The notes: a model not told the origin generated them from the letters alone. Counted from the stretch's first letter, positions 21,209-21,329 are shown. The stretch is 64,000 bases of DNA from Promethearchaeati archaeon (GCA_013166775.1 JABLTJ010000005.1:67993-131992); one strand, 5' to 3'. Numbers and translations: made by a program.

Positions 21209-21329
21209 TTCAGGTTCGGAATGAGTCTGAGTGTTACCCCTTCACTATGGCCGCGACGCATCGCAGCGAACGGCTGTTCCCAAGCCCTCGCGGAACTTAG
21301 TACAAAGCCACACGTTGAAGGACTTAACT
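21209..21329 (-). rRNA. rrf: 5S rRNA, circularly permuted gene
   Basis: Minus strand reads AGUUAAGUCCUUCAAC...GGCUUGGGAACAGCCGUUCGCUGCGA-UGCG-UCGCGGCCAUAGUGAAGGGGUAACACUCAGACUCAUUCCGAACCUGAA; helices I-V, loop C and loop D/E are all present, but the 3' half comes first. Confidence 0.92.

Follow-up and report, generated by a model that had tools for sequence, protein, structure and literature searches.

A circularly permuted 5S rRNA gene in Asgard archaea and its predicted maturation into a ring

Where is the 5S gene in a genome that seems, to standard annotation, to have none? 5S ribosomal RNA (rRNA) is a universal component of the ribosome, and its gene is deemed trivially easy to find in archaea. 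The window analysed here, i.e., one whole 64,000-nucleotide (nt) stretch of a Heimdall-group Asgard archaeon, Promethearchaeati archaeon (GCA_013166775.1 JABLTJ010000005.1:67993-131992), contains no 5S that reaches the Rfam gathering score (38 bits for RF00001, in colinear order). What it does contain, at 21209-21329 on the minus strand, is a 5S rRNA whose 3′ part is encoded before its 5′ part. A sequence-only reading of the window had proposed that this is a circularly permuted 5S gene with a splice motif at its ends, and we are nearly certain that it is a functional permuted 5S gene of the organism. All features of the gene and its flanks described below lie on the minus strand.

From 21329 to 21209, the elements of 5S rRNA follow one another in the order loop B, helix V/IV, helix I closed by UGCG, loop A, helix II and helix III. 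The 3′ part (21261-21329) opens with AGUUAAG (loop B) and continues with the helix II 3′ strand (UCCUU..AC), helix V (GUGUGGCU/AGCCGUUC), loop E/helix IV (GUACU...GCGA...GGGAA) and the helix I 3′ strand (GCUGCGA). A UGCG tetraloop (21257-21260) then links the ancestral 3′ and 5′ ends on helix I; in congeners this cap reads UGCG, UUCG, UACG or UAUG. The 5′ part (21209-21256) runs through the helix I 5′ strand (UCGCGGC), CAUAG (loop A), the helix II 5′ strand and helix III/loop C (UCAGAC UCAUUCC GAAC CUGA A), ending in CCUGAA. The loop motifs of 5S (CAUAG, CCGAAC, AGUUAAG and GUACU/GGGAA) are thus all found in the window, and they are invariant or nearly so in our alignments A1 and A2 of permuted genes.

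Profile searches see the same order. When E-value thresholds are used, Rfam gives two adjoining sub-threshold half matches in swapped order, one at 21348-21258 (21.5 bits) to the 3′ half of 5S and one at 21252-21153 (15 bits) to model positions 7 to approximately 60. We also built a colinear hidden Markov model from 18 colinear Asgard 5S genes and used nhmmer to compare the re-ordered sequence with the genomic order. The re-ordered sequence gives a single full-length match (positions 4-114, 53.2 bits, E 2.5e-18), whereas the genomic order gives two, positions 49-114 first (the 3′ part) and then 3-48 (the 5′ part). This is the outcome the sequence-only reading foresaw, and its description of the layout was also right: the gene is permuted, the ancestral ends are closed by a UNCG-type loop on helix I (UGCG at 21260-21257), and the new ends lie in the AA bulge adjoining helix III.

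Two other explanations of the local sequence were tried and rejected. Tandem 5S genes could be the source of the helix I junction, but there is no loop A or loop C upstream and no loop B or loop E downstream, and the genes on either side encode tRNA-Ser and a flavodoxin. An open reading frame at 21245-21490 (81 amino acids, TTG start) overlaps the 5S gene and its leader, and we take it as spurious, although automatic annotation could call it as a gene.

The fold is supported by comparison. Across 35 diverse permuted genes, the canonical 5S helices in rotated order are paired in 85.2% of cells, compared with 34-50% when partners are slid, and the covariation score is 0.537, compared with at most 0.18; none of 500 shuffles scored as high. 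Double changes are present in 23 of the 35 helix pairs. Helix I, now a hairpin capped by its tetraloop, also covaries (GCUGCGA/UCGCGGC, GCUGGAU/AUCCGGC, GCUGUGA/UCACGGU), in agreement with the covariation in both the 3′ and the 5′ part. RNAalifold recovers the same 5S helices without being supplied a structure.

The sequence-only reading raised two questions that call for wider searches, i.e., whether the genome also has a colinear 5S and whether relatives share the permutation. For these we used RF00001 and R1, a model of the permuted 5S form (cut-off E <= 1e-5). The window's genome (G000; 3.85 Mb in 115 contigs) has a single R1 match, which is this locus, and no colinear 5S or other RF00001 match was found anywhere in the 88.7% of the genome estimated to be present. 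The locus is the genome's only detectable 5S. We searched 24 genomes of the same genus, and every one has a match to the locus (82-99% identity); the match covers nearly the full 181 bases including flanks in 21 of them, and it is partial or in pieces at contig ends in the other three. Sister genera have the same permuted layout, including the closed Ca. Heimdallarchaeum genomes CP084166 and CP084167, each of which holds two permuted copies. There is no colinear 5S in the closed relatives, and the best RF00001 score in G045 and G046 is 31 bits, at permuted loci. Because all 24 congeners match and the closed Heimdallarchaeum genomes share the layout, misassembly and chance are excluded. Wu et al. 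(2022, PMC8813620) could not predict 5S in closed Heimdallarchaeum genomes, which, together with the empty Rfam result at gathering score, agrees with the earlier claim that standard annotation overlooks the gene.

Nor is the permuted 5S a rarity of one genome: it is the majority state in our sample of the Asgard phylum. Among 151 evenly sampled Asgard genomes, R1 matches 86, and RF00001 (colinear) is above its cut-off in 49. By family (numbered by us), R1 matches are found in f1 (13/13), f3 (4/4), f5 (7/7), f7 (4/4), f11 (5/5), f13 (18/25), f17 (3/3), f20 (5/5), f22 (5/6), f23 (6/7) and others, while RF00001 matches are found in f10 (26/26), f16 (17/19), f19 (3/5), f14, f26 and f27, plus one f4 genome (G027) in which the match is to the 5′ half of a permuted gene only. 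R1 matches essentially nothing in the colinear families, i.e., the permuted and colinear states are complementary by family. All permuted genes are broken at the same point, in the AA bulge that separates loop B from helix III, and this speaks for a rearrangement inherited from a common ancestor. We also ran a degenerate pattern, matchable only by a helix-I-closed 5S, on a species-representative genome collection. It returned 84 stretches, approximately 70 of them in records named Heimdall-, Hod-, Kari-, Jord-, Baldr-, Njord-, Hermod-, Frey- or Hel-archaeota. The bacterial matches (approximately 11 of the 84) have no loop B and are at chance level (approximately 13 estimated), so we discarded them.

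Some individual records in this survey have features of their own. The '5′-half-only' 5S elements of f4 resolved as permuted genes with a canonical bulge-helix-bulge (BHB) motif. In the f4 genome G027, contigs C77, C90, C106 and C132 (L034, L223) carry four identical permuted copies, of which Rfam detects the 5′ half only (38.4 bits); three of them stand at contig starts, and the 5S of this genome appears to be a repeat that breaks the assembly. Two f13 loci, L213 (G133:C251) and L214 (G073:C142), have inserts of approximately 30 nt within the mature 5S when compared with their close relatives L210 and L211, the first after GUACUGCA in helix IV and the second in loop C/helix III; these may be BHB-type introns inside 5S. 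Asgard-type permuted 5S contigs also turn up in odd bins, namely L068 (DATKTP010000169, labelled Deferrimicrobium), L135 (Thermoproteota) and L087 (Thorarchaeota), the last of which is near-identical to the window's genus. These records are likely mis-binned or mislabelled.

How, then, could a transcript with its parts in this order become a canonical 5S? The flanks of the gene in other lineages suggest an answer. Outside the window's family, leader and trailer form a canonical BHB that brackets the gene. The outer leader/trailer helix is 5-16 bp long and has a wholly different sequence in each lineage (e.g., GGUGCGGCAUCC/GGAUGCCGCACC, UGGCGUCGUUG/CAGCGACGCCA, GAGGCUCUG/CAGAGUCUC and UCGCACUAGA/UUUAGUGCGA). 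Immediately next to it, a leader tetramer and the helix III 3′ strand form a 4-bp helix, and each strand has a 3-nt bulge on the 3′ side of this helix. In 25 of 62 loci, leader and trailer are complementary over 5 bp or more, compared with 35 of 1220 mismatched leader-trailer controls.

The archaeal splicing endonuclease EndA cuts after the second bulge base of such a motif. When this rule is applied to the 44 distinct canonical-BHB loci, exactly 6 nt (the canonical N4-AA) are left between GAAC and GU(U/C)AAG in 40 of them. Two registers produce this result (a slash marks the cut): leader AA/G with trailer N4-AA/A in 28 loci, and leader AA/A with trailer N4-A/A in 12. The two registers compensate each other between lineages, and three Kari-type loci yield 7 nt instead of 6. 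We regard these co-varying registers as the best sequence-level argument that the two ends would be joined.

In the window, the sequence-only reading had described a motif in which leader GGU-CGGG-AAA (21338-21329) pairs with trailer CCUG-AAA-ACC (21214-21205), giving a 4-bp central helix, a 3-nt bulge on each strand and an outer helix GGU/ACC. The central helix and both AAA bulges are conserved. The leader's CGGG (C[G/A]GG in the family; 21332-21335), which is the second of two central-helix strands there, pairs with trailer CCUG (21214-21211), which mature helix III uses as well, and the CGGG/CCUG helix is 100% paired in 25 distinct family sequences, with only G-U to A-U changes. The leader bulge AAA (21329-21331) is invariant in the family, and the trailer bulge (AAA at 21210-21208, so that trailer strand and bulge together occupy 21208-21214) is AAA or GAA. 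Cuts after the second bulge base are predicted at 21330/21329 and 21209/21208 and would join CCUGAA to AGUUAAG in a 121-nt product. That these cuts rebuild the canonical junction had been claimed for the window, where the claim is borne out, and the same rule works in the 40 of 44 other Asgard loci. The inner helix was rightly called weak and the motif relaxed, with a G-A mismatch followed by U-A and U-G only (inner length 0 in our scan). The outer helix GGU/ACC is where that description failed: its pairs survive in 9 and 11 of the 25 sequences (52% paired), which is no better than shuffles, and we rejected it as a conserved element.

The real outer element is a 12-bp clamp between leader strand GCCUAGUAAGGU (21366-21377) and trailer strand ACCUUGCUAGGU (21196-21207). 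In 25 family members, 91% of its cells are paired and 11 of its 12 pairs have both-sided changes, and in Heimdallarchaeum it has been fully rewritten with compensation (CUAAUGGCA/UGCCAUUAG). RNAalifold and a single-sequence minimum free energy fold each predict it independently. A local trailer hairpin (AACCU/AGGUU) was considered instead, but changes from CCUU to UUUU keep the pairing with leader AAGG, which favours the long-range clamp. On the trailer side, the clamp comes directly after the AAA bulge. On the leader side, approximately 31 nt separate it from the central helix, and between clamp and CGGG these comprise an invariant CAG, three or four unpaired bases and an 8-bp hairpin. The sequence-only reading missed the clamp, the CAG and the hairpin.

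These leader elements give the trailer tetramer a choice of partner. The invariant CAG (21365-21363; alignment columns 19-21) abuts the clamp and is 100% complementary to trailer CUG, with the fourth position always mismatched. It belongs to CAGA-CAA (21359-21365), a first copy of the central-helix strand and bulge; read as CAGA/CCUG, this upstream partner uses the same trailer bulge as CGGG/CCUG. We also weighed a central helix that pairs leader UCAG with trailer CUGA and would so move the 3′ cut by one base, but rejected it as column 18 pairs inconsistently. The hairpin (CAUCUGGA-UGCGU-UCCAGAUG; 21338-21358) is an intron-like insert between clamp and central helix. It is predicted by RNAalifold, 96.5% of its cells are paired in the 25 family members, and four of its eight pairs have compensatory changes. 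On either side of the hairpin, the leader thus has a sequence with which the trailer tetramer could pair, and we call this arrangement of two alternative partners the nested layout.

The same nested layout is found with perfect pairing in f17 (L217/L218, in closed genomes G057 and G067). There the clamp is GUGGCAACA/UGUUGCCAC (9 bp) and the leader reads CGUG-AGA, hairpin (GCCGA...UCGGC), CGUG-AGA, GUUAAG, so the whole heptamer is duplicated. This suggests that two families have gained or retained an intron-like element placed precisely at the 5S junction. In Heimdallarchaeum (CP084166/CP084167; L084/L112 vs L094/L124), the two permuted copies lie approximately 350 kb apart and have different leaders: one is of the nested type, whereas in the other a simple 5-bp outer helix (GUGGU/ACCAC) sits directly against the central helix, and a clamp and hairpin are present separately.

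The flanks also carry what look like the limits of a transcript. An A/T-rich box (TTCAAAAAC, or TTAAAAAA in congeners; 21398-21406) stands approximately 21-29 nt upstream of the clamp, at a position conserved in congeners, and is likely the archaeal TATA box of an independent 5S transcription unit. A U-rich tract (UCUUUACGUU, or GGUUUUUUACGUUU in congeners; 21186-21195), recognised from both sequence and alignment, comes right after the clamp and is likely an archaeal terminator. The neighbours are a divergent tRNA-Ser(GCU) gene (21500-21582, plus strand) and the end of a flavodoxin gene (20663-21187).

As for the enzymes, the genome encodes one RtcB ligase and two divergent EndA paralogues (L226, G000:C97:86567-86794; L227, G000:C1:26311-26571). 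The paralogues are 185 amino acids each, 28% identical, and both have N- and C-terminal EndA domains (PF01974 plus PF02778). Their presence as a pair suggests a heteromeric enzyme, and heteromeric splicing endonucleases accept relaxed motifs in Crenarchaeota. The weaker of the two paralogues also shows a faint Sen15-like match.

Putting these elements together, we think it probable, with appreciable room for doubt about the account as a whole, that the permuted 5S is cut at the bulges and joined into a ring. The limits of transcription, the cleavage, the ligation and the ring as the ribosomal form are steps that we infer from sequence. A small independent minus-strand unit would be transcribed downstream of its A/T box, from approximately 21380 to 21190, and end at the U-tract. 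Leader and trailer would pair into the 12-bp clamp, bringing the two new ends together, and trailer CCUG (the helix III 3′ strand) would pair with the leader tetramer, leaving an AAA bulge 3′ of the 4-bp helix on each strand. Such a geometry would be a substrate of the archaeal tRNA-splicing endonuclease. The cuts at 21330/21329 and 21209/21208 would free a 121-nt RNA, and RtcB would join its 2′,3′-cyclic phosphate and 5′-OH ends to give the canonical ...GAAC CUGA AA GUUAAG.... The product would be a covalently closed 5S with helix I still capped by UGCG.

Two routes could lead to this ring in the nested layout. With the one-step route, both cuts would be made on the inner relaxed motif while the hairpin is looped out. 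With the two-step route, the outer motif (clamp, CAGA/CCUG and bulges) would first free a ring that retains the hairpin; the hairpin, CGGG/CCUG and both AAA bulges would then act as an intron-type BHB, and its removal would leave the 121-nt ring. The two routes would share the 3′ cut and give the same product, and the sequence fits both. We extend the account beyond the window only tentatively, in a form that could well prove wrong: that most Asgard ribosomes carry a ring 5S, including those of Heimdall and Hod, which are closest to eukaryotes, and that Heimdallarchaeaceae (the window's family) and f17 mature theirs by two nested BHB events that remove the hairpin.

Several points weigh against maturation into a ring. 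The motif of the window's family is not a canonical BHB: the helix adjoining the central helix is not conserved, the inner helix is weak, and a gap of approximately 31 nt separates clamp and central helix on the leader side. Most other Asgard lineages, and the second Heimdallarchaeum copy, do have an outer helix that abuts the central helix. Mature 5S constrains the trailer strand of the central helix, which accordingly shows no compensatory change; conservation alone indicates that it pairs. For helix III to form, trailer CCUG must also give up its BHB pairing and switch to UCAG. Finally, archaeal 5S, unlike 16S and 23S, is said to mature without circularisation in the species studied (PMC12918454).

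Known systems provide close parallels. Full-text searches of the available literature found no report of a permuted archaeal 5S gene. The locus has the hallmarks of permuted RNA genes, i.e., the 3′ part lies upstream, the ancestral ends are joined by a loop, and the predicted cut-and-join would restore the canonical sequence. The nearest case is the signal recognition particle (SRP) RNA of Thermoproteus tenax and T. uzoniensis, which is permuted, cut by the splicing endonuclease and circularised into a functional ring, as established by RNA-seq and enzyme assays (Plagens et al. 2015, PMC4731332). There too an essential structured RNA has its 3′ part encoded before its 5′ part, and the canonical gene had seemed to be missing. 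The differences are that our RNA is 5S rRNA, a ribosome component, that its permutation extends to most families of a phylum and not to one genus, and that in the window's family the layout is nested, a hairpin being flanked by two alternative partners for the trailer tetramer. For the SRP RNA, circularisation has been demonstrated, whereas for 5S we infer it from the DNA.

Permuted tRNA genes of Cyanidioschyzon merolae, to the extent that Soma et al. (2007) are cited in PMC4267664, are similar in having the 3′ half upstream, a BHB at leader and trailer, and a circular intermediate. On the same secondhand account, those rings are re-opened at the acceptor ends by RNase P and tRNase Z, whereas the ancestral ends of our 5S lie under a stable tetraloop, and the tRNAs belong to a eukaryotic nucleus whereas the 5S is archaeal. 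The permuted 5S of brown-algal and stramenopile mitochondria (Valach et al. 2014, PMC4267664) likewise has a hairpin-closed helix I and termini elsewhere, and standard 5S models miss it. Its ends are at the alpha/gamma domain junction, and the mature RNA is permuted and linear with no BHB or splicing (PMC4267664), unlike the gene described here, which is broken at the AA bulge separating helix III from loop B and has BHB elements on either side of the break. Archaeal pre-16S and pre-23S rings also arise from leader/trailer BHB stems that are cut by EndA and then ligated, and ring-derived or permuted archaeal rRNA enters ribosomes, e.g., the 23S of Pyrococcus furiosus (PMC7758197, PMC10515664, PMC12918454). 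Those genes are colinear, and in P. furiosus permutation happens after transcription (PMC7758197); here the gene itself is permuted.

The mitochondrial case is also the precedent for the strongest alternative to the ring, namely a permuted linear 5S, trimmed by EndA or other RNases with its ends left unjoined, helix I closed and a nick in the AA bulge by helix III. Besides the organellar example of a 5S that is permuted in its mature form (PMC4267664), this alternative draws on the position of the predicted ends, which fall within an unpaired bulge that helices II and III hold together, so that a nick there could be tolerated. Against it stands the co-variation of cut registers between lineages, in which the summed ends give N4-AA-GU in 40 of 44 loci, as selection on a joined product predicts. 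In addition, the BHB-excised RNAs of studied archaea (tRNA introns, pre-rRNA rings and SRP RNA) are ligated by RtcB (PMC4731332, PMC10515664), which the window's genome encodes. We therefore judge a linear 5S to be unlikely, if still a serious competitor.

A ring could also be made and then re-opened, for instance at the loop of helix I, which would leave an ordinary linear 5S. Rings are known to be re-linearised elsewhere, in archaeal pre-16S (PMC10515664) and, going by the citation of Soma et al. (2007) in PMC4267664, in the permuted tRNAs of Cyanidioschyzon. The helix I cap offers such a step little to work with, as it is a short stable tetraloop or an extended perfect stem-loop in all lineages and has no conserved sequence, second BHB or visible processing signal, and we consider re-opening quite improbable.

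We find it hardly credible that the locus is an assembly artefact or a non-functional remnant, be it a pseudogene or a circle that was copied back into the genome, while the true 5S lies elsewhere or is missing from the assembly: the genome's incompleteness (88.7%, 115 contigs) and a colinear 5S on another contig of congener G015 would allow it, but the permuted gene persists with compensatory changes in all 24 congeners (21 complete), in sister genera and in 86 of 151 Asgard genomes, the closed genomes hold permuted copies only, and the G015 contig is the sole such case among 25 genus genomes, in a bin that is approximately 6% contaminated and has permuted copies as well. The colinear 5S in question (L033, G015:C117:8277-8414) scores 48.3 bits, has a 22-nt loop C insert and a GC content of 0.56, and adjoins a tRNA with a 46-nt intron; its contig is probably a contaminant.

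A permuted, splicing-dependent 5S in most sampled Asgard families would explain why no 5S was predicted in the closed Heimdallarchaeum genomes (PMC8813620). The same gap keeps Asgard metagenome-assembled genomes below the 5S criterion for high-quality genomes, and the permuted-form model (R1) can be used directly to annotate the gene. Since the break point is shared, permuted versus colinear 5S is a discrete rare-genomic-change character, usable for the disputed Asgard branching order and for the placement of eukaryotes, whose 5S is colinear.

With this gene, an rRNA would join the few permuted RNA genes that the tRNA-splicing machinery is known to rescue. If the 5S is matured through a ring, it would be an exception to, or a surprise against, archaeal 5S as described in PMC12918454. 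The account predicts a natural circular rRNA within mature ribosomes and, if it is true, the splicing machinery would be essential for ribosome formation in these Asgard archaea.

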